From a virus, in IMG/VR virus record IMGVR_UViG_3300048609_000070: a stretch of DNA of 64,000 nt; one strand, 5' to 3'. The position numbers and the translations under genes were made by a program. The notes beneath the pieces are model-generated. The model did not search any database. It saw only the letters and a program-made list of their open reading frames with translations, and was not told the DNA's origin. Position 1 is the stretch's first letter, and each line of letters starts with the position of its first letter. Shown here piece after piece: positions 3,258 through 54,665 of this stretch.

Positions 3258-4084
3258 TCTTCCTCCGAGAGATGGGTCTCTTCCAGAATTTGGATGTCGT
3301 TTGCGTCGAAGACCAGGATCTCGTCAGGAAAGGACCCTGAACGTTCAAAATAGAGTGCCTTGTAGCCAGCGTAGTTTACTTCTTGACCGATTTCGTCTAA
3401 AGAGAGGATGGTTGCTTGATTCTTCTGTTCCCAATCTTCTGCTATTTTTCTTGCAGAGGAGACGGTCAGTCTAAATTCTTCCGTACTGTCTGGAATATCT
3501 TCTAAATCGTAGGCATCTGGGATCCTGAGAGTAGTATGCACCCAGGATTCTAGCTCAGGAACGTTCTCTATAAAGATTTCGAGCGATTGGAGATAAGCAC
3601 CTGTGTCTTTGTCGTCGTTCGTGATAAGGTACTTCTGATCGTGGATATAAAAATAGAAAGGAGGGATGGGTTCTCCAACCAGGACGGAGGTGTTCTCTAG
3701 CCCTTCCACGATGTCTTGGTTTTCTGCCGAGAGGTCGAAGATGTCAGATTCCTGGAAGTTGAGGAGAACTTTATAAACATAGGGGCCATAAGAACGGGCA
3801 GTTCCATAGTTTTTGGAGACATAGACGCCTGCTCCGAGGTCTCCACCGTATTGCATCTGGGGTTTATTGGACTTGAGAGACTGAAGATCGGGGATGCTGC
3901 TTCCATGGTAAGCAGTGACTTGTGCAAGAAGATGGATGGCATTTTTGAGATTTTTCATTCTTGTAGAATACTTTGAAATTCTTGGATAGATGCAAGAAAA
4001 GTATATTTTAGACATGACATACTTCATAGAAGACGGGTTCCTCTGCAGGCGATCGTCGAGTCCAGTGTCGGAAGCGGTCGCCAT
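3254..4084 (-). CDS. hypothetical protein
   Basis: 276 aa ORF. Start and stop are contiguous with neighbouring ORFs. Confidence 0.4.
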   Translation of the reverse strand: MATASDTGLDDRLQRNPSSMKYVMSKIYFSCIYPRISKYSTRMKNLKNAIHLLAQVTAYHGSSIPDLQSLKSNKPQMQYGGDLGAGVYVSKNYGTARSYGPYVYKVLLNFQESDIFDLSAENQDIVEGLENTSVLVGEPIPPFYFYIHDQKYLITNDDKDTGAYLQSLEIFIENVPELESWVHTTLRIPDAYDLEDIPDSTEEFRLTVSSARKIAEDWEQKNQATILSLDEIGQEVNYAGYKALYFERSGSFPDEILVFDANDIQILEETHLSEEE

Positions 4085-4333
4085 GGTTCACTTCTGGGCT
4101 GGCCGGTGCGGGCCTCCCCCAAGGGATTGGAGCTGCATTTTGAGGACTCTGAAGGGCAATCTTGATGCGCGTCTGTCGTTCAATCCTGGAGATTCCCTCG
4201 ACCCGGGATCTACGGCGGTAGCGCGCATTCGATTACTTTCTCCTGAATTGCTTTATTCGTATCTACCGCTGAATGGGGTGTTTACTTTGTGGGAAGGCAA
4301 GGTCGTGGGTGATGGAAGGGTCTTTATGCATCT

Positions 4334-7808: not shown

Positions 7809-8295
7809 ATTCTTTTAGCTCTTCTCTTACCTCTTCCAGCGTGATGTCTCTTGGACTATTCACGTGTGCAAAATCGAAACCAAGCGTGATAGACCCATCT
7901 TCGTTTGTTTGCGCGAGTGTGACTCCTCCATGGCACGAAAGTTTATCTCGTAGGAATCGAAGATTAAAATCTGGTCTGAAGATCAGCAGAAATGTAACAT
8001 AAGCACAGTAATAATTTATTGGAATTATTTCGGAGAGAAATTTGGCAAAATCTTCAGGCAGGTTCAATTTATTTTTGACGATATCGAAGCGAATACCTCC
8101 TTCTTCCCAGCAATGGTGTTCTTCTCTTGTAACTAAATATTGAATGTCTTCGTTGCTGCTGTCAAGAAAGTTCTTATACATTTTCTTTCCTGTATTCTGA
8201 AGGATCGCGCAGCAGAAAGTCAGAACCCCTGACATTCTGAAATCCACGTTTTTGCAGCATCGTTGCCAATCGCTCGTTGTGGACGCACTCAACAT
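7762..8295 (-). CDS. hypothetical protein, tandem paralog B (probable true start near 8180, MYKNFLDSS)
   Basis: Homologous to 7374..7808. The N-terminal extension overlaps the GNAT gene and is probably not translated. Confidence 0.4.
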   Translation of the reverse strand: MLSASTTSDWQRCCKNVDFRMSGVLTFCCAILQNTGKKMYKNFLDSSNEDIQYLVTREEHHCWEEGGIRFDIVKNKLNLPEDFAKFLSEIIPINYYCAYVTFLLIFRPDFNLRFLRDKLSCHGGVTLAQTNEDGSITLGFDFAHVNSPRDITLEEVREELKEFAKNVQAAPKLAYAQ

Positions 8296-8545
8296 AAATG
8301 GCCGTGTCTGGACACAAGGAAATTACTTCCTCCAAAAAACGTGAAAATATTCCTTTGCCTCTCTGACTCGTGGCTACTTCAACGTTCGCGATTTCAAAAA
8401 CAGGATCGAGCAAACGGCCTTCTACACACCGTTGCGTGTATCTGACATACATCGCCGTAAAGCCTGGAACGTCGATGTACGCGCGTCGCAGCAAACTTGG
8501 CCATCGGACAGATTTGGCCTGCGTCAAAAAAGTCTTTAGGTCCAC
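8174..8545 (-). CDS. GNAT family N-acetyltransferase
   Basis: 123 aa. Acetyl-CoA motif A Q-R-G-K-G-I-F-S-R-F-L-E. Confidence 0.6.
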   Translation of the reverse strand: MDLKTFLTQAKSVRWPSLLRRAYIDVPGFTAMYVRYTQRCVEGRLLDPVFEIANVEVATSQRGKGIFSRFLEEVISLCPDTAIYVECVHNERLATMLQKRGFQNVRGSDFLLRDPSEYRKENV

Positions 8546-8631
8546 TGTGGAAACTCCTTGCGTATTTTTCCTCCTTGTGGGATCTTAGCAAAGGATGACG
8601 GGAAGTCAACAGTTTATTTTGTGGAGGAAAC

Positions 8632-9690
8632 ATGCGAAAACTGGCCACAATTCGAAAGGTATTGGACATCAAGCCCATCCCAAACGCGGATAGCATTGAA
8701 CTCGCGATGATCGGGGGTTGGCAATGCGTCGTCAAAAAGGGAGAATTCAAAATTGGTGACTTGGGGGTCTACTTCGAAATCGATTCCTTTTTACCGATAG
8801 ACGCCCGGTTCGAGTTCCTTCGGAAGTCATCCTACAAGACCCTGGCTGATGGGTCTGAAGGATTCCGTCTGAGGACGGTCAAGTTCCGAGGAGAGCTCTC
8901 TCAGGGGCTCTTGATGCCCTTGAGCACGTTTCCGGAGATGCCTGTGGATACCTACGACGTGACCAGTGCGCTCCATGTCAAGCTCTACACGCCGCCCACT
9001 CCTGCGTGCTTGTCCGGGGACGTCGTAGGGCCATTCCCTTCGTGCATACCCAAGACGGACGCGGAGAGGATCCAGAACATCCCTGACTACTTTTCCACAA
9101 TGAAAGATGAAGAATTTGAAGTCAGCGAAAAGGTCGATGGCACCAGTTTGACATGTTATTTTTTGAATGGAAAGGTTGGAGTCTGCGGCCGGAACTGGGA
9201 GTTAAAAGAAGACATGCGAAATGCTTACTGGAAGATCGCAAGTTATTTTATTCCTGCAGTGAAGGAGCTCCATTTGAATATTGCACTGCAAGGGGAGCTC
9301 TGTGGGGAGGGCATCCAGAGCAACCCTCTGAAGTTGAAAGGACAGAGATTATTTCTTTTCCATGTGTACGATCTGGATGAGAGTAAATATTACATGCCTG
9401 ATCAGCGTTGGGAATTGTTTGAGAAAATAAAATGTGATGCGCTGGATCACGTTCCGCTTATCAGTAAAAGAGTGAAAGTTTTTCAAGAATTGGATACCAT
9501 GGAAAAGATGCTGGATTATGCAGCAGGAAAGAGTTGTGTTTGTTCGCAGATGGTAACTTCAAAGTCTGTCCAAAGAAGAGTCATGGTTCAATCCACGATA
9601 GAACGTGAAGGATTGGTTTTCAAGTCTTGGAGTCATCCAGAGATTTGTTTCAAGGCGGTGAGCAATACTTATTTGTTGGGTGAGAAGTGA
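8632..9690 (+). CDS. ATP-dependent RNA ligase, Rnl-like (DraRnl/NgrRnl-type N-terminal domain)
   Basis: 352 aa. Nucleotidyltransferase motif I KVDGTS (candidate adenylylated Lys in SEKVDGTSLT). N-terminal IRKV..I.PIPNADSIELAMIGGWQCVVKKGEFKIGD resembles the Rnl5-family N-domain. Confidence 0.6.
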   Translation: MRKLATIRKVLDIKPIPNADSIELAMIGGWQCVVKKGEFKIGDLGVYFEIDSFLPIDARFEFLRKSSYKTLADGSEGFRLRTVKFRGELSQGLLMPLSTFPEMPVDTYDVTSALHVKLYTPPTPACLSGDVVGPFPSCIPKTDAERIQNIPDYFSTMKDEEFEVSEKVDGTSLTCYFLNGKVGVCGRNWELKEDMRNAYWKIASYFIPAVKELHLNIALQGELCGEGIQSNPLKLKGQRLFLFHVYDLDESKYYMPDQRWELFEKIKCDALDHVPLISKRVKVFQELDTMEKMLDYAAGKSCVCSQMVTSKSVQRRVMVQSTIEREGLVFKSWSHPEICFKAVSNTYLLGEK

Positions 9691-14797: not shown

Positions 14798-15416
14798 TTT
14801 TCGTTCCTCCTATGCGTTTTGGGCATGCGTATCTACCTTCCGGCTAGGATTATAGCGGAAACACCGTTTTCGTCAAGCTATTTTTTTGGTGAGCTAAGGA
14901 ACGAGCGCGACAGTTACGAGACGTCCGGCGAGGTACTCGCGAAGGAAATCAGCGCTGGTAGCGAGCGCTGCAGAAACTTCTGCGACGGTGGTCCAGGTGA
15001 ACCACTTTGCAACGTCGATTGTTTGCCCTGGGTGCATGATCAGACCTGGGTAGCGATGCTTTGAAAAGTAGTTGTCTTTCAGGATCGTGATCTGGATTTC
15101 ATTTGGCGATGTATTCTTTAATCTGACAATCATTTTTTTCTCCTTATTTTTCTTTCAATTGTAGCATATTTTCTTGGACTTGCTATTAAAAACTGTTCCA
15201 AAGTTTTAGTCTAGCATTTAGTGTAGCATGGAAAACAAAGGAGAGATATCATGACACAGAAAGAACTCATGATTCTATTGGTCAAGACCAAGTTTGGAGT
15301 TACCCCCACAGAAGAGCAGCTTGCTAAACTTCAAGCATGGGCAAGAGACAAAACGATTCCTACGGATGCGTGGTTGGGACAGGCTGCAAAGCTCCTGGAA
15401 AACAAACCCGCTTAAT

Positions 15417-16919: not shown

Positions 16920-18101
16920 TCAATATAGATCCCTTTCGTGTCGTTCTTTTATGACATCTTGGCATAGATCGTCCAAAAAATTGATGTCTGGAGACTTTGG
17001 AATAAACTTCAAATAAGATCCGCTCTGGTAGATGCTATCGAGCTCTGCTTCTATCGTATCTGCAAAGTCTATCAGTTCATTATACGTCCAGGCACCATTC
17101 CTAACTTCCAGTAACAATTTTGCACGTTCTTTGTCTTTAACGTTGAGTGTTCCTTTGGTTAGGATTTCCTTACATTGCATCATCAGCCGTACCAGATGAG
17201 CAGCGTGTTTGCAATCGTAGCTAAACTTTGCTTCTGACTCTGCCCTTTTTTTATTCCGTGTCAAAATCCAATTTTGGTACTGATTCCACTCTGTCAACGC
17301 ATTTCTATATTTCTTTTCTGCTTGCAGAACGACAATATAGTTTTCATCAAACTTGTACTTCTTCGATGCCGCAAGCTTTGCAAGCTCGAACAACTTTTCG
17401 CTATCGAGCATGGCAATCAGTGAGTTGCGATGCTCCATGGCAATTGCCATCATTTCCACGATTCCATCTTGGATAGAACTGACAATGCTCTTGTCAACTT
17501 CTGCTTCTTCGAGGAGCCACAGACGCGCCTGTTTCTCTAGCAAGCTCTCTGCAGCTCCTCGGTTCTCTGGAGAGATCAAGCCAACGTCAGGAAGTCCATA
17601 CTCCGACCTTTCTGGCTTATGCGTCGGAGGATGCATTAGCCAACGTCTGTGCGTATTGATTCTTTTGAGTTGCGCTCTGGCATAACCAGAAAAAGAAAAC
17701 TTGGCACGACCGGAGAGGAATTTTGTGGCGTTCTCTCGAACGGATCTTCCTGCTTCCGAGCAATACATTGTCTCGCTCGGATCGATAAAAAGAAGCTCGA
17801 TGATGCTTGGGTTGCACACTGCAGCCAATTTGAAGAACTTTCTGATGTCGTAGATAACGACGTCTGCCGGATCTTCTGAGCTGTTGTATATTTTTTTGTA
17901 GTCTTTTGGAAGCCAACGGAGATCCCGTGGAGTAATTTTTAGTTCTGTTTGCTCGAAGTTTTTGTGGAATGATCGGAAATAATCAACGGGTGGAATGCAC
18001 CAGCCACGGACATCTAAATCTGAGGTTTCTGTTGCCATTCCATAGGCGTGAGACCCGGCAATCACCAGATATTCTGTATGATCGAAAACGTCGAATTCCA
18101 T
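16920..18101 (-). CDS. Pol-beta superfamily nucleotidyltransferase, RlaP-like
   Basis: 393 aa. NTase motif GSHAYGMATETSDLDVRG (GS..G...SDxD). Paralog at 36071..36826. Confidence 0.5.
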   Translation of the reverse strand: MEFDVFDHTEYLVIAGSHAYGMATETSDLDVRGWCIPPVDYFRSFHKNFEQTELKITPRDLRWLPKDYKKIYNSSEDPADVVIYDIRKFFKLAAVCNPSIIELLFIDPSETMYCSEAGRSVRENATKFLSGRAKFSFSGYARAQLKRINTHRRWLMHPPTHKPERSEYGLPDVGLISPENRGAAESLLEKQARLWLLEEAEVDKSIVSSIQDGIVEMMAIAMEHRNSLIAMLDSEKLFELAKLAASKKYKFDENYIVVLQAEKKYRNALTEWNQYQNWILTRNKKRAESEAKFSYDCKHAAHLVRLMMQCKEILTKGTLNVKDKERAKLLLEVRNGAWTYNELIDFADTIEAELDSIYQSGSYLKFIPKSPDINFLDDLCQDVIKERHERDLY

Positions 18102-24062: not shown

Positions 24063-24479
24063 TGCTGATAAAGCCGAAAGTGATTAGTCTGTATACTGAG
24101 TGGGATCACGACGTTCGAGACATTGGTGTCCATTCTTTATTTTTCTTGTACGTGATTTTCAACCTGCGTCCGTTTGTGGACGTCCTACCGTCCAGGGCCT
24201 TCGTCCGCCATCCCCCTTTGAAAAAACCTTTATGCTAGTCCTCTGGACCCCCACCCATGATGGTGGACCTTGTTGATGTGTCCGTCGAGATCATGACGTC
24301 CTGGATCATCTCATCGTGGCAGCCTAGTCTAGAGGGACGGCTAGACAGGGCTGTCTGTAACATCGTAATACAGCACCAGAGGTTGTCGCCGGTCACGCCA
24401 ACCGACGACGAGGGACATCCTCCGGGATCGAAGGGTCGTCTAGAGCCTTCAGACTGTATTGTAGCGATGTTCTCTGGGA

Positions 24480-24790
24480 AGTCAACTTAAATTTTTGGCT
24501 GGTCATGATCTATTGTCCCCGCTTCCAGTACTCCCGGTCCCGCAATCTGATGGAGCAGTGGCGCTGTCCCAGGTCCTATACCTGTGTCGCAGCATCGTCC
24601 CTGTCTATGTTTCGCCGGGTCTCGTCCCTGTGTGTCCCGTATGTCACTGGTGGTCCCGTTATGGCGTCTTCAGCCCGCCGAGCGTACAGTCTAGTCCGAG
24701 AGCTCCTTTTAGTATGGGTTGTCCCACCGGTTGATGTCTCGGTTCGTCCCAGACCGAAGCCTTCAGTTTGTCCCTTACACGTCCCTGTCT
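24480..24790. repeat. GTCCC-motif array (about 12 copies at 10-30 nt irregular spacing) downstream of the Cas12-like gene
   Basis: GTCCC recurs (GTCCCCGC.., GTCCCGCAAT.., GTCCCAGG.., GTCCCTGTC.., GTCCCGTATG.. etc.). The plus strand is pyrimidine-rich. No convincing ORF. Confidence 0.6.
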
Positions 24791-27700
24791 CAACCTAAAC
24801 TTTGATAACTTTTTGCTTCGACTGCTTTCCAGAAGACCGCGGCTTGAACCCACACGCTCGGGTCGAAGAATGTTCCGGAGGGGTCACGGAAGAGGACCAT
24901 CTTGTTTTTCTCGTTGATTTTGACATCTATCTTTTTTGTAGCCATCGCCGTGTACGTCCCATTACCGTCCTTCTTGAAAAATTCAACAGCATCACTCTTG
25001 AAGTGTCCCTGCAGAATTTTTCCGAGCTCCAGGTTCAGTAGGTGTCCGTCTGTCTCGTATGCCACAGCGCGTACAGGATTTGCACTCCCTGTCAAATAAT
25101 TCATACCGTGATTTTGAGCAGCGTTGACGTCAACGTGGATCCGTGACCCGTCGCTTGTGACAAGGTATGGCCCTCCAGGAACTGGAATCAAATCCCGTCG
25201 CTTCAGCTGTAGCAAGTCTAGCTTAGCCTCTTTTACGAATGGTCGGAGCCAATGTCCTTGCGTTTGGATCGCATTTACTTCCTCGTCACTCTTTATTTCG
25301 TAGCATGCAATCCCTGGCGTTCTTGTCCCAGCGCTAAAGATTGAGGAGAAAGCAACGGGTGCTTTGCCAATGGCAAAGCCTTCGGCTTTGGCCCTTCGTT
25401 CGATTTCTTGTGCAATAGAGCGGTGACTCCATTGTGCAAGACGGACGTTTTCCTCAAGGTCCTGATCCTCGGTGATTCTATATCGTGTCAAGTCACCGAG
25501 GACGATAATATCCACAGGAGTATACGTATGACTCCAACTTTTATTTGAATAGGTATTTCCTTTTGCCGCCTCAATTATAAATGCTGTGAGCGTCTTGATC
25601 CGATCCATCTTCAAGTTCTGGATATGGACCAATAATCGAGATGCTACCACGCCTTGGGTAGACTTTTCCATCCGGCGAACTGGATAGTCAGGGCGAGAAT
25701 GCCGATCCCACGCTCTGATGAGATCTCGCGTTTTCTCCAGATAAGCAATCCGCCATATGGACTTTCCTCCAAGAGTCATCTTCTCCTGTCGCCAATCGTG
25801 AATATCCTTGGCGATGCGTGTTTCCTCCTCGAAATAGATTGGGCGCATGATTCGTTCCCAATTCTCGTGGGGGCAACCATATAGGATGCTCAACTCTCTA
25901 TGCACATCTTTATCGAGCTTTCCTCTCATCCCATTGAGGAGCTCTTTCCTTACTTCAGGATCTTGTGTCCCGTGCAATTGCCTTAAACCTGATAGTTTAT
26001 CGAGTTCCCTCCCAATGCGCCATAACCGCTCTTGCGCTTCCTTGCGTCCTTCGATCGCTTTCTCTGCGGGCATACGCAGCAAAAACGTCTGCTCATGGTG
26101 GATCTTGTGCCCTTCGACAGACCATAGCGGGTCTGTGCTTTTTTCTGCCCCGACCTCGAAAATTGAGCATGTGGCTGACACTCTAATGCCCAGGTGGACT
26201 GCCATGATTCGAATGCCAGGGACGATAGGAGATTTTTTCTCCGCAGATCTTGTAATTTTGCTCTTTGAAAGATACCTTGCAATGTCTCTGCGATCGACCG
26301 TAGGAATTTTTGTCTTGTGCTCCTCGGTCTCTACATTGACCGAGAGCATCAAGTAGGCCATGGCTCCGGGTCGTCCATCTCGGAGCTTCCAGGCACTTGT
26401 CGGATCGGACACGAATCGAGGTGATAAGATGAGAGACGCTCCTCCGGCAATGCTGACTTTTCGTTGGATATTGTCTTGCGATTCATACGATAGATACTGC
26501 TTTTTCTTGTCGTCCCACATTTTGAGCAGACGCAATTGGTATGTTGGTGCAATCTGGAAAAAGAATTTACGAATGCAGACCCCATCTGAATCCTTAGAAA
26601 ATAACGGCAGATCTACACAGAGTCCCTGTTCATTTTGTTTGAGCGTATAAGGCGGGTTGTTTCGATTTGAAAGTCCCGAAAATAGGGTGAATCTCGGATG
26701 GGTCTCTGCATCCGGAAAAGTGAGCATTGGGAGTTCTTTTGCTTCCTGAATCTTTTTTAATACCTTGTTTTTCTTTGCCCAATGAAAAACAGCATCCGGG
26801 TCGTCGAAGGCTTCTTTGGCGAGGTCAAGTAAGATGGTGGATCCGTGGTCCCCAGCTTGTACAATTCTTTCTCTTTGGTCCGTGATACCTTTAAGCTTTT
26901 TCCAATTTTTTATCTCTCGCTCAGTGATGAGATAGGCAGATTTTTCTGCCCAATTTCCAGCTCTTTTGATCTGTTCTTCCCTTTTCTGTTCAATACAGAT
27001 CAGAGTCTGCGAGTCCCTTTCGCTATACGGATTTCCTAATTTTTCCAGTTCTGCCTCTAGATCTTGTGTCCGTGCTGTGAGATTATGCCGCCAGCTTTCC
27101 CAGGAATTGAGATGTCCAACGGCGAGGGTGAAAGCCATACGCTCGTAGGCTTGCAGAGCTGTGGTCCCTAAAATGTCAAAGAGGAATGGATCAGCAAGTG
27201 GAAGCGCCCCGAGTGAACGGATCTCGCTCACCAGCGAATCCATTATCAATTTTTCTTTATTGGATGCAACGTACTTTGTTGCTGCATCTTTCCAGCCGGG
27301 ATCTCCTGTCTTGAACAGAGTCAGCCAATGTGCTTCCCTGCCGACTGAAGGTCCCATGAAAAGGGAATTATTCTTGATCTGATCTTCCAGGTTGGATTCA
27401 CTATCCATTATTCGCTGGAGGGTCCGAACGAGATTTGCCGCGTGAGATCCTCCTTGGGATTCTTTCTGCACGAGGAGGCCCTGGTAGCCTCGGACTTCAT
27501 CGGCAGATCCAGAGCCGCCCTCGCGGTAGGACTCGACATAATAAGGATAGAGCTCCTTTAATAAGGAGCAGCATCTATCAATATTTTTTACTTTGCGTTC
27601 CTTGAGCTTTGCCTGCAATCGGGACGTCCATTCGGAGCCCGGGACAGTCTCTTTTTCGAGCCGGACGTCATCCTGACGAATGGTCACGAGCATCTTTTCA

Positions 27701-27813
27701 TAGAAACGCACCATGTCGTTCACGATCTGATGCGTATACGCTAGAGCTCTTGCCCCATCAGTATTGGATTTTCTTGGAACGTGAAGTTTTAATCGTATAG
27801 CTCTTGTGTCCAC
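24790..27813 (-). CDS. Cas12b (C2c1)-like type V effector homolog, predicted nuclease-dead (GTG start)
   Basis: 1007 aa. RuvC-I region IMAVHLGIRVSATCSIFEV matches Cas12b ..SVDLG.R.SA..SVF.V but has His in place of the catalytic Asp. RuvC-II IIVLGDLTRY compared with Cas12b ILLEELSEY. Cas12b-like RLAQWSHRS. FSSIFSAGTRTPGIACYEI compared with FSSRFDARTGAPGIRC. RuvC-III HVDVNAAQNHG is retained. RBS GAGGGAG upstream of GTG. Confidence 0.75.
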   Translation of the reverse strand: MDTRAIRLKLHVPRKSNTDGARALAYTHQIVNDMVRFYEKMLVTIRQDDVRLEKETVPGSEWTSRLQAKLKERKVKNIDRCCSLLKELYPYYVESYREGGSGSADEVRGYQGLLVQKESQGGSHAANLVRTLQRIMDSESNLEDQIKNNSLFMGPSVGREAHWLTLFKTGDPGWKDAATKYVASNKEKLIMDSLVSEIRSLGALPLADPFLFDILGTTALQAYERMAFTLAVGHLNSWESWRHNLTARTQDLEAELEKLGNPYSERDSQTLICIEQKREEQIKRAGNWAEKSAYLITEREIKNWKKLKGITDQRERIVQAGDHGSTILLDLAKEAFDDPDAVFHWAKKNKVLKKIQEAKELPMLTFPDAETHPRFTLFSGLSNRNNPPYTLKQNEQGLCVDLPLFSKDSDGVCIRKFFFQIAPTYQLRLLKMWDDKKKQYLSYESQDNIQRKVSIAGGASLILSPRFVSDPTSAWKLRDGRPGAMAYLMLSVNVETEEHKTKIPTVDRRDIARYLSKSKITRSAEKKSPIVPGIRIMAVHLGIRVSATCSIFEVGAEKSTDPLWSVEGHKIHHEQTFLLRMPAEKAIEGRKEAQERLWRIGRELDKLSGLRQLHGTQDPEVRKELLNGMRGKLDKDVHRELSILYGCPHENWERIMRPIYFEEETRIAKDIHDWRQEKMTLGGKSIWRIAYLEKTRDLIRAWDRHSRPDYPVRRMEKSTQGVVASRLLVHIQNLKMDRIKTLTAFIIEAAKGNTYSNKSWSHTYTPVDIIVLGDLTRYRITEDQDLEENVRLAQWSHRSIAQEIERRAKAEGFAIGKAPVAFSSIFSAGTRTPGIACYEIKSDEEVNAIQTQGHWLRPFVKEAKLDLLQLKRRDLIPVPGGPYLVTSDGSRIHVDVNAAQNHGMNYLTGSANPVRAVAYETDGHLLNLELGKILQGHFKSDAVEFFKKDGNGTYTAMATKKIDVKINEKNKMVLFRDPSGTFFDPSVWVQAAVFWKAVEAKSYQSLG

Positions 27814-27839: not shown

Positions 27840-28365
27840 GTCTCTTTTACCGTATCTGCATCAGTATTCCTTTGTCTCTAGCTTCTTTGTCGTGCTCCGG
27901 ACATTGCGTCTCGTTCTCTTTCTGTCTCTTTTTTCCGTTGGGCTGTTCGACCCGTCTCTTATCGTAGTAAATTTTTATCACCTGTCTCTTTTTTCTTTTG
28001 TTTCAAGAGGTCTCTTTTTTCCATCTTTTGTACGATAATCTACTGGTTGTATGCCGCCACGCCAGCGACATACGAGAGACATCCAGTAGGCCCCCTGGGT
28101 CGTGTAGAGCCAGGTTAGTAGATCGTACTTTATATCTCTGAATTTCAAAGAACTCTGCGCGAGTATTGTATCTTTCCCATCCATTGCCTCGTCTGTCTCA
28201 CCCCAAACCAAAAATCGCTTTCGTGTCTATTTCCGTTTTCCTCGATGTCTCAGTCCCAGCAACAACCGGCTGGGGACACGTCTCATTATTCACTCGTAAC
28301 ACTAGGCTCCAGTCTCTTTTTCGCTTTAGAGTAGAAGTTCTCATCCGGTCTCGTAATTGCCGTCT
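27840..28365. repeat. GTCTC-motif array 2 (about 18 copies; extended form GTCTCTTTTT(T)C) between the promoter and the Cas12-like start
   Basis: The plus strand is almost pure pyrimidine except G in GTCTC. Motif spacing 14-45 nt. No stop codons on plus only because of A-depletion. Transcribed on the minus strand from the promoter at 28374-28401. Confidence 0.65.
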
Positions 28366-28373
28366 CAGTATCA

Positions 28374-28401
28374 ATTCTAGCATGCCCACTTTTTTTGTCA
28401 A
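28374..28401 (-). promoter_or_regulatory. consensus sigma70 promoter (minus strand): TTGACA-16nt-TAGAAT with AT-rich UP region
   Basis: RC of 28374-28410 reads AATTAATTTTTCTCTTGACAAAAAAAGTGGGCATGCTAGAAT. Near-identical to the promoter at 30343-30370. Confidence 0.6.
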
Positions 28402-28618
28402 GAGAAAAATTAATTTACCGTAGGTTGAGTTTTTCCATGCGCGATGTCCTCGTCTTTTTCCTTCTCGTCTCTTTTTCTTTTCTCCATGCCGCGAAGCATA
28501 ATGTGCTTTTTTATGATCTCCTGCTCCTTCCTAGACCAGTAATGCTCTCGCATATGCCAGGCAATCCACAGAAGGATTGAGAAATGAAACAGCATGTTAA
28601 AGAAAGATTCCCACGAGG

Positions 28619-29395
28619 TCATGTGTTCCTCTCTGCTTGCATAGGGTCTCTTTGCATCCTCTCCAGCAGTCCGTAATATGCGGAGGCTAATCCACATTGG
28701 TCGCAAAGTTGAGTGAGTCCGACAGTCTCTATGATACTTTTTGTGCTTTCAAAAACACTCCCAATTTCCGTGCAGCTAGAGCATTCTCCGATTCTTATTT
28801 TTCCATTGACATCGATCATAGGAGAACACATTTTTCCAATTCTTTGTAATGTTCGGATCATAGTAACAAAATTCGCTTCCCGGAATTGCAATGCGAAAAG
28901 ATGAACGTTAGCGCAATGCGGAAAAACACGTTCACTTTTTGTATAGTTCTTTTTTGCTCGTCCTAAAAGTGTGATGCTAATCCCATCCTCGAAAAGTTGA
29001 GTGTTGGGGAGAGTCTCTAGCTTGAGATTTGCATGTATCACATGATAATTGGGGTAATATTTTGGGTGCGTCCTGATTTGCAAGCGTATGTTGGTAGTGG
29101 TCAGAAGATCCAACATATTGCGGTATTTTTCTTGGTCTGTATAGAACGAACCGTTACTCTGGATCATGATATCAGATTCAGGGAATACTTTACTGACGAT
29201 CTTGGCCCATGAAAAAAAGGAAGGGTGAAGTGTCGGTTCTCCACCTGTAATCTGGATTAAAATCGGTTTGACCTTCCGCAGCAATTTTAATGTAGCTGCA
29301 AAAGTCTTTTGCTCCATGTGCTCCCCGGAAGGATTTGCATCCTCCATGCAATGCGAGCAATTTTCAAGGCATCGGTTTGTAATTTTTACGAGCAT
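28619..29395 (-). CDS. radical SAM enzyme with C-terminal extra Cys cluster (twitch/SPASM-like)
   Basis: 258 aa. CxxxCxxC (CLENCSHC). GGEP motif (ITGGEPTLHP). C-terminal CSPM...GECSSCTEIG...CDQCG. Confidence 0.7.
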   Translation of the reverse strand: MLVKITNRCLENCSHCMEDANPSGEHMEQKTFAATLKLLRKVKPILIQITGGEPTLHPSFFSWAKIVSKVFPESDIMIQSNGSFYTDQEKYRNMLDLLTTTNIRLQIRTHPKYYPNYHVIHANLKLETLPNTQLFEDGISITLLGRAKKNYTKSERVFPHCANVHLFALQFREANFVTMIRTLQRIGKMCSPMIDVNGKIRIGECSSCTEIGSVFESTKSIIETVGLTQLCDQCGLASAYYGLLERMQRDPMQAERNT

Positions 29396-39540: not shown

Positions 39541-41390
39541 GGGCTGACGGGTTCATCCCGTCAGTCCCCTGCCACACCACCGGACATGCGGGTCCGCATC
39601 CGGCGGTTCGGTAGGTTGAGGTTATGCCGCAAGCCTCGGTACTCCTTGTCGGTCGTAGTAGCTCGTCGGCAGCGCAGTGTTCAACAGCTTCGCGGAATTG
39701 CACCACCAGCGGCGTGAGTTCGCGGCCACCCGCCGGGCGGCCTGGTCATTCGCTCCAAGCCGCTTCATCTCCCGGTAGATGGTCTTCCCTCGTATCCACT
39801 GTTTGAGCTGTATCATCCGCAGACGATGGCGTATCCATTCGTCGAGATTCATGAAGATGCCAGGCGTCTCGGCCAGGCGGAAATACCCTTTCCACCCAAG
39901 CAGGTAAGCCCGTAGCTCCGCGAACACCCGATTCATGCTCCGCCCTCGACTCCGGGTCGTGATGTCCCGGACCCGCTGCTTCATCGCTTCAAGGGCTTTT
40001 GGCGCCACGCGCCGCCGGACGACCTTTCCCGGGGCTACCCAGAAGCTGTACCCCAGGAACTTCCTTTCCCACGGTCGTGCCACCGCGCTCTTCATCTCGT
40101 TGACTCGCAGCCGTAGTCGCGCGTACAAGTCCCGAAGGGCCCGCATCACACGCTCGCCAGCTCGCTGCGACCCAACGTACACGTTGCAGTCATCAGCGTA
40201 GCGGACAAACGCATGCCCACGCTTCTCCAGCTCCTTATCCACTTCGTCGAGGAGCACGTTCGCCAACAGCGGTGAGAGAGGGCCGCCCTGCGGCGTCCCC
40301 TCGTACCGCTCCGTTGCCACCCCTCCCGCCATGATGCCGGCTTCGAGGTAGCGCCGGATGAGCCCCAGCATCCGCCTGTCTCCAATGCGCTTCTCCAGCC
40401 TCCCCATCAGCACGTCGTGGTTGACCCGGTCGAAGAACCGCTCCAGGTCCACGTCCACCACCACCCGCCTCCCTTCCTGGACATACCGCTGCGCTTCGCA
40501 GACCGCGTCGTGTGCGCTATGCCCGGGCCGAAAGCCGTGGCTGTGCTTCGAGAAGGTCGGGTCGAACATCGGTTGCAGGACCTGCAGGATGCTCTGCTGG
40601 ATGAACCGGTCGAGCACGGTTGGGATGCCAAGCTTTCGCACCCCGCCCCCGCTCTTCGGTATCTCCGCTTCCCGCACCGGTTTCGGCTGGTAGGTGCCTT
40701 CGAGCAGCTGCGCTCGAGTCGCCTCCCAGTGTTCAATCAGGTGCTTCGGCAGCTCGTCGACGGTCATCCCGTCCACACCGGGGCTGCCCTTGTTCTGCCG
40801 TACCCGCTTCAACGCCGCCTTGGCATTGCCGCGCTCGACCACCCGTTCCATCAGGTGGTCGATTCCTGAGCGCTCATCTCCGTTCGCCGCCGTCGGGGTT
40901 TCGCCGCTCCGTTGGGCCCTCGGGGCTTCACCCCTGCCTCCCAGCGGTAGCTCCAGCTGATTGGACTTCTGGCGCCTGACCCTTCCGAGACTCACGGTTG
41001 CCTCGCTCTCCCTTCCGTTCGGCCCTTCGCCGTTGCCGGCTACTATGGCCTCTGCTGACTTCTCGGTCCGGCTTTGTGCCGTCGCCCTTTCAGGCGTGGG
41101 CCGAGATCTCCTCAGGTAAGGGTTCATGGACTTCGCCGCACAGCCGCCGGATTTACGTCGTCTGACTCTTGGTCGCGAGGGCTTCGCGGTCCTTTGCCCG
41201 CTCGCCCTTGTCGACGCCGCCTTGTATCCGGTTCTTGTTCATCGGCTCGCGGCTTCACTACCCGCTTCTTTCAGCGCCGGCCTCGCGGCCGGACCGGTCT
41301 CCCGGCTTGCCGCCTTGCGGTTCGTGTGGGTCGCTGCGACCAACTCCCCAGGGGACTTTCACCCCCTGTCCATTCCCATGCTGAGCACAC
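39538..41390 (-). mobile_element. bacterial group II intron (about 1.85 kb); boundaries approximate
   Basis: 5' end GUGUGCUCAGCAUGG... at RC of about 41390. Domain V-like hairpin CCGCCGGATGCGGACCCGCATGTCCGGTGG and domain VI GGGGACTGACGGGATGAACCCGTCAGCCCC near 39541-39620. IEP in domain IV. GC about 62% against a flank of about 38%. Confidence 0.8.
39622..41127 (-). CDS. ltrA: group II intron-encoded reverse transcriptase/maturase
   Basis: 501 aa. RT motifs: GIPTVLDRFIQQS. GFRPG.SAHDA. YADD in FVRYADDCNVYVG. Maturase X domain. Confidence 0.9.
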   Translation of the reverse strand: MNPYLRRSRPTPERATAQSRTEKSAEAIVAGNGEGPNGRESEATVSLGRVRRQKSNQLELPLGGRGEAPRAQRSGETPTAANGDERSGIDHLMERVVERGNAKAALKRVRQNKGSPGVDGMTVDELPKHLIEHWEATRAQLLEGTYQPKPVREAEIPKSGGGVRKLGIPTVLDRFIQQSILQVLQPMFDPTFSKHSHGFRPGHSAHDAVCEAQRYVQEGRRVVVDVDLERFFDRVNHDVLMGRLEKRIGDRRMLGLIRRYLEAGIMAGGVATERYEGTPQGGPLSPLLANVLLDEVDKELEKRGHAFVRYADDCNVYVGSQRAGERVMRALRDLYARLRLRVNEMKSAVARPWERKFLGYSFWVAPGKVVRRRVAPKALEAMKQRVRDITTRSRGRSMNRVFAELRAYLLGWKGYFRLAETPGIFMNLDEWIRHRLRMIQLKQWIRGKTIYREMKRLGANDQAARRVAANSRRWWCNSAKLLNTALPTSYYDRQGVPRLAA

Positions 41391-43770: not shown

Positions 43771-44811
43771 CTAGGCTAGGTTTGCTAGTGGCTTACCTAA
43801 CTTCAAAGGCGTTTGATGTCCCAAACGGAGTATGTTTTGAGCCGCATTAATATCGCGACTGTGAGTTTGCCCACAACTCTCACAAGTCCATACTCTTACG
43901 GAAAGGTCTGTCAGATCCTTCGGCCCCGACCTTTCCAGGCATTGACCACACGTTTGCGTAGTATATGCTTCGCTGACCAAGTGGAAGGCACCTTGCCGTC
44001 TACTGACCTTATATTCAAGGAGCCTTATCAGTCCTCGGTAAGCAGTATCATTGGTAGATTTACCACTTTGCAACTTCAAATCACCAACATAGATTTCTTG
44101 GTAAGTGCTGGCTAACTTGGTGGATATCTTATGGAGGTTATCCTGACGTTGACGCTGAACCTTACGAGCAAGATGCTTATGTTGCTTAGACTTTCTAAAC
44201 CGTTGGAGATTACCTAGCTTGACTACGCTTTTTCGAAAGCATTTAGGATTGTCAAAGACTTCTCCGTTAGAAGATACAGCAATACTGTTTAGTCCAAGGT
44301 CGATACCTACATGCACAGAGATTAGTGCTTTGGGTAGCAACTCAACCTCGCAAACCAATGTCAAATACCAATCTCCACAAGCATCTTCTACGAAGCTCCC
44401 TGTACATACTTTTCCTTCTAGTTCACGGGATTTGAAGAATTTGAACCAAGTACCATTGAACTTTACTTTATTATCTTTGACCTTGATAGAAATTGCCTTG
44501 AAAGGAATCCATCCTAAAGACTTCCTTGTGCGCCACTTTAGTTTACGACGGCATGTTTGTTTGCGAGATTTAGCATAAGTTTCATCGATTGCCTGTATAG
44601 TAGTAGCAGGTATCTTTAGAAGTTTACAGGAACCAGCAGTCAGGTTGTTCAAGTCAAATCCGGTTAGGAATTTATAGTGAGATTTAATCGCCTTACAGGA
44701 AGTTTCGTTGTCGTAGTTCCAGACAAAGTTAACTTTGGAAGCAGCTACGCGCAAGTGGCGCAGCTTGGAACGCGAAAGTTTGAACTTGTAAGTCGTATAC
44801 ATAACGTTCAC
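43771..44811 (-). CDS. tnpB: IS200/IS605-family TnpB homolog with non-canonical RuvC-II (GDL in place of EDL)
   Basis: 346 aa. RuvC-I VGIDLGL. RuvC-II position reads EIYVGDLKL. Zn finger CGQC...CESCG. RuvC-III SRDINAAQNIL. Hairpin CCCCGCCTTGAAAGACGGGG about 20 bp downstream of the stop. Confidence 0.8.
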   Translation of the reverse strand: MNVMYTTYKFKLSRSKLRHLRVAASKVNFVWNYDNETSCKAIKSHYKFLTGFDLNNLTAGSCKLLKIPATTIQAIDETYAKSRKQTCRRKLKWRTRKSLGWIPFKAISIKVKDNKVKFNGTWFKFFKSRELEGKVCTGSFVEDACGDWYLTLVCEVELLPKALISVHVGIDLGLNSIAVSSNGEVFDNPKCFRKSVVKLGNLQRFRKSKQHKHLARKVQRQRQDNLHKISTKLASTYQEIYVGDLKLQSGKSTNDTAYRGLIRLLEYKVSRRQGAFHLVSEAYTTQTCGQCLERSGPKDLTDLSVRVWTCESCGQTHSRDINAAQNILRLGHQTPLKLGKPLANLA

Positions 44812-53960: not shown

Positions 53961-54665
53961 CTATAGCCTCGTCAAAAATTCTTCGTTTGGAGCGTTGTTA
54001 ATTGCGAAGTCCGCAGATGGCACGGAAATATCAGCTCCGCACCGTGGACATTTTTTTGCTCCTGCTGCAAACTCTTCAGATTCAATTCCGCAAAACGGAC
54101 AAGCATGGACGAAACTATCTGGATTTCTCTCAGATGGTTGATAGGGACCAGCAAAAGCGTCTGAAATAAGCTTGATTGCCGCATGAAGATGCCGCATGCT
54201 ATTTTTTTCCATTGTTTTTTCTCCAAGCTCTATCCAGCACTCCGGAGCTTTAAATATTTTTCCGTAGTCTTGGAAGATCTCCAGGTTCCCTTCCTCGTCA
54301 TCGATAAAAACTAAATCTTTATGATCTTTTAGTTTATTTTCTACCATTGACTTTTTGAATTTGGAAGGAGGGGTATGATCGTCCCGTAAAAATAAATGGT
54401 CATTGTCTACGTCAAAATCGTAATGCTTCTTGAGCCAATCCTTTGTTGTTTCCCTTAATGTTTCTCTCCTTCCAGAAATAAAATAAACATCGTCAAAGAT
54501 CTTTGTCATTTTAGGAAGGACTTTTTGAGCTTCTGGAAAAGGAGAATCTTTTTCTACCATGTCCGGAGAAAAAAAGGCGTCCCAATCTGGTTTTTCACAT
54601 TCAACAAGATGAGCACGATGGTCCGTGTTAGCGAGTGTCCCGTCAATGTCAAGGACAAGAATCAT
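53961..54665 (-). CDS. HAD-superfamily phosphatase (PNK-phosphatase-like) with C-terminal zinc ribbon
   Basis: 234 aa. Motif I LVLDIDGTL. C-terminal CPFCG...CPRCG. Confidence 0.6.
   Translation of the reverse strand: MILVLDIDGTLANTDHRAHLVECEKPDWDAFFSPDMVEKDSPFPEAQKVLPKMTKIFDDVYFISGRRETLRETTKDWLKKHYDFDVDNDHLFLRDDHTPPSKFKKSMVENKLKDHKDLVFIDDEEGNLEIFQDYGKIFKAPECWIELGEKTMEKNSMRHLHAAIKLISDAFAGPYQPSERNPDSFVHACPFCGIESEEFAAGAKKCPRCGADISVPSADFAINNAPNEEFLTRL

Follow-up and report, generated by a model that had tools for sequence, protein, structure and literature searches.

We describe a derivative of the type V-B CRISPR system in a 64,000-nucleotide (nt) stretch of DNA, hereafter the window, from the IMG/VR virus record IMGVR_UViG_3300048609_000070. 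Its effector is a Cas12b protein of 1007 amino acids (aa) in which two of the three catalytic residues of the RuvC nuclease are replaced. The gene is flanked by two genes resembling those for trans-activating CRISPR RNAs (tracrRNAs), tracr-A and tracr-B, and by three gene-free blocks that together hold 63 strand-specific copies of the pentamer GRGAC on the gene strand. On balance, we consider it probable that a type V-B system which formerly cut DNA here only binds it, directed by pentamer-tagged guide RNAs, and that it has lost its adaptation genes and normal arrays. The features that carry this reading are the following.

24220-24451 (-), tracr-A, tracrRNA-like, ~230 nt, with a 75-nt core at 24376-24450, the anti-repeat GUCCC and a U-tract end
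24515-24795 (-), pentamer block 1, beginning at the cas12b stop codon; 14 GRGAC (11 GGGAC, 3 GAGAC) at an irregular spacing of 5-68 nt
24790-27813 (-), nuclease-dead cas12b gene; 1007 aa, GTG start, RuvC triad H540 / G773 / D895
27840-28475 (-), pentamer block 2, the cas12b leader; 15 GRGAC (14 GAGAC, 1 GGGAC), mostly as AAAAA-GAGAC; contains tracr-B
28040-28114 (-), tracr-B core, a paralog of tracr-A, 75 nt, with the anti-repeat GUCUC
29412-30314 (-), pentamer block 3, the leader of a radical SAM (S-adenosylmethionine) gene; 34 GRGAC (27 GAGAC, 7 GGGAC) at a typical spacing of 20-40 nt

The Cas12b effector

The cas12b gene has a GGGAG ribosome-binding site 5′ of its GTG start. We prefer the 1007-aa reading over the 974-aa call recorded by JGI (P0001), because the N-terminus that it yields (MDTRAIRLKL) agrees with canonical Cas12b N-termini. 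Pfam finds a C2c1_RuvC-like domain (1.9e-37) together with helical and Nuc-II domains. The full-length match to the NCBIfam Cas12b equivalog NF033949 lies above the curated family threshold (310 bits, 4.1e-92; cutoff 150), the PADLOC Cas12b match reaches 1.3e-129, and the PDB chains of AacCas12b and BthCas12b match at E = 7e-43 to 2e-39. Profile-profile comparison with Cas12b by hhalign gave a probability of 100% over 1018 columns, and a TnpB-related model scored 19 bits, below its own cutoff. By its sequence the protein is a bona fide full-length Cas12b, as a first-pass annotation of this DNA had proposed.

The catalytic columns were read from the HMMER alignment to PDB chains of dead crystallization constructs with Ala mutations. 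The mutated columns of these chains, MSV[D/A]LG, LILL[E/A]ELS and IHA[D/A]LNAAQN, correspond to MAV-H-LG, IVL-G-DL and HV-D-VNAAQN in the window protein; the RuvC-I Asp is replaced by H540 and the RuvC-II Glu by G773, and the RuvC-III Asp is retained as D895. A 106-sequence alignment and the hhalign columns give the same assignment. The substitutions named by the first-pass annotation (Asp to His in RuvC-I, Glu to Gly in RuvC-II, the third Asp kept) are thereby confirmed, and alignment to the catalytic triad of AacCas12b reveals no conventional triad, that is, not the intact D-E-D of an active Cas12b.

It is very improbable, in our estimate, that the protein still acts as a nuclease through other residues such as His540, Asp774 and Asp895. 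In its favor are the retained RuvC-III Asp, the Asp next to Gly773 and the ability of His to bind metal. Asp774, however, is no replacement, because this neighbor is conserved in active enzymes too (LEDL motif). Moreover, D570A or E848A alone, in the same columns, was used to inactivate AacCas12b for crystallography, and the relative P0012 repeats the H/G pair and has lost the third Asp as well. Residual nuclease activity is unlikely, and a non-cleaving, DNA-binding role is the most reasonable reading for the dead Cas12b. To this extent the regulator suggested by the first-pass annotation, an RNA-guided DNA-binding protein, stands; its comparison with Cas12k and TldR holds by analogy only, the protein being a bona fide Cas12b.

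A locus from another metagenome (L001) carries the 3′ half of the gene (453 codons) and the downstream region. Over these codons the two genes share 94% nucleotide and 97% amino-acid identity, with a synonymous divergence (dS) of 0.26, a nonsynonymous divergence (dN) of 0.013 and a dN/dS of 0.049. The dead Cas12b is under strong purifying selection; it is functional, not decaying.

Two tracrRNA-like genes

tracr-A contains the sequence GGAU-GUCCC-UCG, and tracr-B occupies the sole long motif-free gap of block 2. The 75-nt cores of the two give a gap-free alignment. Each copy can form all 22 proposed base pairs, and 11 of these are changed on both sides, i.e., are compensatory, where slid controls gave at most 1. 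Loop and anti-repeat sequences are conserved between the copies. The common fold consists of a 5′ hairpin, followed by a 7-bp closing stem around an unpaired AU-GUCYC-UC and a 10-bp hairpin. tracr-A and tracr-B have the layout of a Cas12b tracrRNA. The fold matches the layout of the published AacCas12b single-guide RNA (sgRNA), CAACGGG-U-GUGCC-AAU-hairpin-AAAG-CCCGUUG, a resemblance that served as a lead and not as a test. Single-sequence folding of tracr-A gave a z-score of -1.0. The tracr-B core is followed in cis by 25 nt that include a small hairpin and then by AAAAAA-GAGAC units, which is the topology of a single-guide RNA.

In the guide RNA of Cas12b, a long repeat/anti-repeat stem is joined by a 5-bp short duplex lying between stem and guide, with a pseudoknot (PMC11246509). 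A V-B tracrRNA carries an anti-repeat that includes this short repeat/anti-repeat, and such a segment is present here in both copies, whose GUCCC and GUCUC complement the GGGAC and GAGAC of the locus. GUCUC forms a perfect duplex with GAGAC and can pair with GGGAC by a G-U wobble; GUCCC pairs with GGGAC only. The ratio of GGGAC to GAGAC is 11:3 in block 1, which adjoins the GUCCC-bearing tracr-A, and 1:14 and 7:27 in blocks 2 and 3, which lie around the GUCUC-bearing tracr-B. The pentamer flavor of each block fits the anti-repeat of the neighboring tracr copy. With two tracrRNA-like genes and three repeat-derived blocks at its flanks, the effector gene is not the orphan that it had been called.

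The pentamer blocks

The numbers of GRGAC in blocks 1, 2 and 3 (14, 15 and 34) compare with 3.8, 3.1 and 5.9 in dinucleotide shuffles, and the complement of the pentamer is nearly missing from the gene strand of the blocks. GAGAC (p = 1e-12) and GGGAC (p = 2e-10) also rank first in an unbiased 5-mer scan. The short-motif arrays noted at first pass are accordingly real; they had been regarded as exotic and left unexplained, whereas we find them to be the CRISPR-derived RNA part of the system. Within the 64 kb the enrichment is restricted to this locus. The dCas12b coding sequence itself (24796-27813, minus strand) shows a mild enrichment of GRGAC too (16 copies vs 7.7 ± 2.7 in shuffles).

The 63 copies are irregularly spaced, overall at ~5-50 nt. 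The median length of the spacers between tags is ~19-20 nt, and 45 of the 63 are at least 14 nt long. The longest sequence common to the units is the pentamer itself, or ~10 nt if the A-tract is included. An origin of the spacers by duplication was considered and rejected, as their pairwise similarity is not in excess.

Repeat ends and anti-repeats in related loci

In the canonical loci nearest to the window, cas12b has a normal array immediately downstream on its own strand. The repeats of these nearest canonical relatives (L002, L003, L005, L034, L035 and L036) end in ...GGGAC; a neighboring clade (L069, L071) has arrays of 72-75 nt period whose repeats end in ...GTTGAGAC, and more distant Cas12b loci have repeats ending in ...GGCAC. 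Since the repeats of its relatives end in this way, both window pentamers correspond to the 3′-terminal, guide-proximal five bases of V-B repeats.

The anti-repeats of the relatives follow suit. GGR-R-GUCCC-UCG is present in the gap between cas12b and the array in L002, L003, L034 and L036, and L005, in which some repeats end in GGAAC, carries GUUCC at the anti-repeat. Repeat end and anti-repeat thus covary as GGCAC-GUGCC (nine loci), GGGAC-GUCCC (four loci) and GGAAC-GUUCC (one locus, L005). A covariance model built from tracr-A and tracr-B alone found matches at independent loci, canonical ones among them, on the same strand as cas12b and downstream of it:

L040, E 4e-4, anti-repeat GUCCC
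L063, E 0.007, anti-repeat GUCCC; own repeats end in GGGAC
L070, E 0.0095, anti-repeat GUCUC
L004, E 0.056, anti-repeat GUCCC
L010, E 0.07, anti-repeat GUGCC; own repeats end in GGCAC
L066, E 0.07, anti-repeat GUCCC
L061, E 0.14, anti-repeat GUCUC

Wherever the repeats are known, the matches bear the anti-repeat that these predict.

A 5-mer is short, the blocks also flank the radical SAM gene, and the pairing of pentamer and anti-repeat is read from sequence; the GRGAC blocks might on these grounds have nothing to do with CRISPR, being sites for some other RNA- or DNA-binding protein or elements of untranslated regions whose identity to repeat ends is coincidental. We hold this to be most improbable, as the repeats in the two nearest Cas12b clades end in these two flavors, each block fits the anti-repeat of the adjoining tracr copy, and the enrichment is confined to this one locus.

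Array decay among dead homologs

About 20 of 105 full-length Cas12b cluster representatives from a metagenome library have broken triads, and these are scattered over a crude neighbor-joining tree. Normal arrays accompany the dead homologs of L063, L064, L067 and L069. In L005, whose Cas12b has a D to N change in RuvC-I, a degenerate six-repeat array (7952-8856) with ends of GGGAC or GGAAC is flanked on both sides by tracr-like copies carrying GUUCC. The RuvC-impaired L061 has a two-repeat mini-array (4076-4172) conserved only in ...GCAATTGTGGGAC, and in the likewise impaired L066 remnants of repeats stand 9-11 nt apart, with lone GGGAC/GGAC tags after them (3489-3700). No pentamer clusters were found beside the other impaired relatives L041, L023 and L059. 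The dead Cas12b homologs form a gradient of array decay, from full through degenerate and two-repeat arrays to pentamers only, of which the window is the extreme.

No canonical CRISPR array was found in the 64 kb by TRF and direct-repeat searches; repeats of ~36 nt with regular spacers, as V-B systems have, are missing, and the pentamer blocks are all that is present. Probes taken from canonical loci and confirmed by Pfam gave no tblastn match to Cas4-Cas1 or Cas2 in the window, i.e., to the cas4-cas1 fusion and cas2 that make up the V-B adaptation module. Among the ~40 open reading frames (ORFs) scanned there are no Tn7-type genes (tnsB, tnsC, tniQ), no transposase domains and no type IV genes. 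The first-pass statement that adaptation genes, Tn7 genes and a canonical array are lacking was therefore correct over these ranges. Rfam searches at gathering and permissive thresholds returned only a group II intron and one chance match.

Conservation and turnover between assemblies

An independent assembly (L072) is 100% identical to the window from 30694 to 27461, a segment that spans blocks 3 and 2, tracr-B and the start of the gene; because of this identity, the features flanking the gene within the segment are not assembly artefacts. Comparison with L001 covers the other side of the gene. There the ~230 nt of tracr-A are nearly unchanged, the 75-nt core being 100% identical where synonymous sites of the adjoining gene differ by 26%, and both its TTGACT-N16-TACAAT promoter and its GGAC-tagged 3′ segments are conserved. 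The first ~70 nt and the last units of block 1 are conserved as well. In the middle of the block the GGGAC tags persist, and the intervening units differ or have been gained or lost (147 nt vs 208 nt). This turnover of block 1 is array-like behavior.

These comparisons bear on the idea that the locus uses only a few fixed guides, with tracr-B plus its first downstream unit and the 3′ tail of tracr-A serving, much as in TldR or tracr-L, as natural single-guide RNAs, and that most pentamers are functionless array debris. The sgRNA topology of tracr-B described above, the conservation of the whole of tracr-A including its GGAC-tagged 3′ segments in L001, and the existence of dead relatives with two-repeat mini-arrays (L061; Cas12b3) speak for it. 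Debris, on the other hand, would not be expected to retain 63 strand-specific exact pentamers at 4-6 times the shuffle expectation when all else is lost, or to keep its tags while the sequence between them changes, and a search of the window gave no match to the putative fixed guide. We regard this explanation as rather improbable. A built-in guide at the 3′ end of tracr-A was itself examined as a candidate and dropped, as it has no target in the window.

Promoters and the intervening gene

Promoters stand before tracr-A and before blocks 2 and 3, and the radical SAM gene lies between blocks 3 and 2.

24458-24485 (-), sigma-70-like promoter TTGACT-N16-TACAAT, heading tracr-A, 3′ of block 1
28374-28401 (-), promoter TTGACA-N16-TAGAAT, heading block 2, tracr-B and cas12b
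28619-29395 (-), radical SAM protein gene, 258 aa, between blocks 3 and 2
30343-30370 (-), promoter TTGACA-N16-TAGAAT, heading block 3

The consensus TTGAC-N17-TAnAAT occurs seven times in the window (at 14849, 23966, 24458, 28374, 30343, 33612 and 53329), where 0.12 occurrences are expected, and four of the seven fall within 24-30.4 kb. The radical SAM gene is probably co-transcribed with block 3; its product is at most a candidate member of the dCas12b system. The protein has a weak viperin-like similarity at its N-terminus (PADLOC pVip, 3.9e-8), without an equivalog.

Proposed mode of action

In the model that we favor, an RNA-guided DNA binder with pentamer-tagged guides, the TTGACA-N16-TAGAAT promoters would drive transcription of the blocks into long leader or trailer RNAs. 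A complex of dCas12b and tracr would attach to a GRGAC tag by the 5-bp pairing of short repeat and anti-repeat, and the ~14-30 nt 3′ of the tag would serve as the guide. The long repeat/anti-repeat stem may be dispensable or may be replaced by hairpins within the tracr, and tracr-B, fused in cis to the first units, would resemble a natural single-guide RNA. The target would be bound and not cut, so that its transcription or replication would be blocked. Guides of this kind would be hard-wired and would change by evolution in situ, not by Cas1-Cas2 acquisition. For inactivated type V effectors (V-C, V-M), binding alone can suffice for interference, possibly in the case of Cas12b3 as well (PMC12669027).

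Several observations weigh against this model. About 18 of the 63 spacings are shorter than 14 nt, which is too short for guides; the spacers, being 63% purine and rich in A, do not resemble protospacers acquired at random; and the units have no long-repeat segment. The last point matters in that scrambling the long anti-repeat abolished targeting by BhCas12b (PMC11246509). Pentamer-only arrays are known from one lineage, in three samples. A consensus fold of the divergent tracr candidates by MAFFT and RNAalifold gave no structure, because the MAFFT alignment was too poor, and the case for a shared tracr structure rests mainly on the two window paralogs and on weak-to-moderate model matches.

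Targets are likewise missing. Within the 64 kb, self-targets do not exceed the shuffle level, either as exact 11-13-mers or as 16-mers with at most two mismatches. Five long spacers have no exact match in IMG/VR, and a BLAST search of block 3 against phages and plasmids gave a best E of at least 0.3, which is chance level. One exact 19-nt match, between the PAM-distal part of a block 1 unit (PAM, protospacer-adjacent motif) and positions 215-233 of L060 (IMG/VR UViG_3300031808_000100), was judged to be due to chance: it lacks the five seed-nearest nucleotides and a T-rich PAM, and ~0.4 such matches are expected by chance.

The blocks could instead be decoys or sponges. They might titrate tracrRNA-dCas12b in a form of autoregulation or, alongside a dead Cas12b acting in a dominant-negative way, sequester the tracrRNA or effector of a V-B system resident in the host, which would make of them an RNA-plus-protein anti-CRISPR on a mobile element. 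The failure to find targets in the window, in IMG/VR and in phage and plasmid records is what one would expect of decoys, as are tags that are dense, irregular and in many cases too close for guides, an unstructured, A-rich composition, and a mobile or defense-rich setting. A RuvC-inactivated phage Cas9, too, might act as an anti-CRISPR according to the 2025 classification (PMC12669027). Against this, the locus has two tracr paralogs of its own whose anti-repeats covary with the adjoining blocks, which points to a self-contained system rather than to mimicry of a host system. Furthermore, some units are 100% conserved between strains at a dS of 0.26 and others turn over, suggesting that the sequence between the tags matters. 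We therefore think that decoys are unlikely.

Returning to pentamer-tagged guides, we tentatively consider it possible that the repeats are reducible to a 5-nt tag altogether, in which case a dead Cas12b already loaded with a self-sufficient tracr scaffold would take its guide from any RNA behind GRGAC. The operon leader RNAs would then hold dozens of hard-wired guides served by the orthogonal pairs GGGAC/GUCCC and GAGAC/GUCUC. Such a locus would be a natural, adaptation-free, multiplexed regulator or silencer resembling CRISPR interference (CRISPRi), and the counterpart of engineered tracrRNA reprogramming.

Genomic setting

The window contains genes for HsdM, TnpB, a group II intron, a phage-type primase, a DNA methyltransferase, RNA-repair-type enzymes and sugar-nucleotide enzymes, and many ORFans. 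PHROGs identifies no virion genes in it, the protein and the tracr have no relatives in IMG/VR, and phage records give no match to the window. A phage origin was set aside on these three counts. The window looks like a mobile or defense-rich region, and the label "phage-like" that the first-pass annotation gave to the genome is not established.

Several of the neighboring genes deserve mention. Directly upstream of block 3 lies a gene for an 835-aa protein (30392-32899, minus strand) with matches to the major-vault-protein domains MVP_shoulder (1.6e-19) and Vault_3 (1.1e-9); this vault-like protein, which is unusual in a prokaryotic or mobile-element setting, has no PHROG, NCBIfam or PADLOC match. 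A metallo-beta-lactamase-fold protein (33661-34374, plus strand) shows a sub-threshold match to the anti-Pycsar protein Apyc1 (44.6 bits, cutoff 50) and also matches RNase Z; a promoter with the consensus described above (33612-33639) drives its gene. The group II intron (39622-41292, minus strand) combines Rfam domains D1-D4 (114 bits) with a reverse transcriptase/maturase ORF. A separate TnpB of 346 aa (43771-44811, minus strand), with OrfB_IS605 and Cas12f1-like TNB domains, is encoded ~16 kb from dCas12b. The RNA-repair-type set comprises an RNA ligase, two RlaP nucleotidyltransferases and a polynucleotide kinase, at 8632-9690 (+), 16920-18101 (-), 36071-36826 (-) and 53961-54665 (-).

Comparison with known systems

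The canonical V-B systems (AacCas12b, BhCas12b) share with the window locus a full-length homologous effector with the same domain set, the same tracrRNA layout with the same 5-bp short repeat/anti-repeat pairing beside the guide, and the placement of genes and RNA elements on one strand. They differ from it in that the window Cas12b has neither the RuvC-I Asp nor the RuvC-II Glu and the locus has neither Cas4-Cas1 nor Cas2. Where canonical arrays have ~36-nt repeats at a period of ~72 nt, the window has only the terminal pentamer in its 63 irregular copies, and it has two tracr paralogs with unlike anti-repeats.

Type V effectors have been inactivated many times (PMC12669027). The closest published case is Cas12b3 (V-B3), an inactivated V-B variant with RuvC-I and RuvC-II substitutions and a mini-array, found on conjugative plasmids of Actinomyces (Makarova et al. 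2025, PMC12669027, Extended Data Fig. 7). The window locus is like it in its natural inactivation by substitutions in RuvC-I and RuvC-II (here D to H and E to G), in the reduced array, in the lack of adaptation genes nearby, in what looks like a mobile-element setting and in the predicted interference by binding. Cas12b3, however, adjoins a type IV-B system and has a mini-array with recognizable repeats, and we recognized neither at the window locus; pentamer-only arrays and dual tracrRNAs, in turn, lie outside the description of Cas12b3. A tblastn search of PLSDB with the window protein returned only an Alicyclobacillus cas12b and no Actinomyces plasmid, and so lent no support from similarity to membership in Cas12b3. 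As judged from the missing Actinomyces match and from its scores, which are those of an ordinary Cas12b, the window protein most likely represents an inactivation independent of Cas12b3.

Cas12c (V-C), Cas12m (V-M) and Cas12k (V-K) likewise perform RNA-guided DNA binding without target cleavage. These belong to other Cas12 families, however. Normal arrays are retained in V-C and V-M. The Tn7-like transposition genes to which V-K is linked were not found among the ~40 window ORFs scanned, and the window protein matches Cas12b and not Cas12k. Atypical or truncated repeats are used by V-K as well.

TldR and dCas12f-sigmaE, too, are related to RNA-guided nucleases but nuclease-dead, and have been exapted as regulators with hard-wired guides. 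Both are small (the size of TnpB or Cas12f), work with one omega-RNA or guide and have conserved target genes in the vicinity, whereas the window has a 1007-aa Cas12b, tracrRNAs and dozens of candidate guides, and no target was found. The TnpB-sized protein with an adjacent omega-RNA-type guide that defines TldR does not occur in this form at the locus.

The first-pass annotation held that such a system had not been described. This is too strong, given Cas12b3 in the 2025 classification (PMC12669027) and the ~20 other Cas12b representatives with broken triads; a dead Cas12b as such is already published. What is new here is a V-B derivative with arrays reduced to a 5-nt short-repeat tag and with two covarying tracr/tag pairs.

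Should the pentamer units be real guides, five nucleotides would suffice as the handle by which a Cas12b-tracrRNA complex is loaded with a guide. This would redefine the minimum size of a CRISPR "repeat" and would explain why standard array finders are silent beside some "orphan" effectors. For dCas12b tools, it would also supply two orthogonal tag/anti-tag pairs and a plan, taken from nature, for guide arrays that are compact and multiplexed. Should the units be decoys instead, the matched flavors of tracr and tag would still represent a clear case of RNA-RNA co-evolution within one locus.

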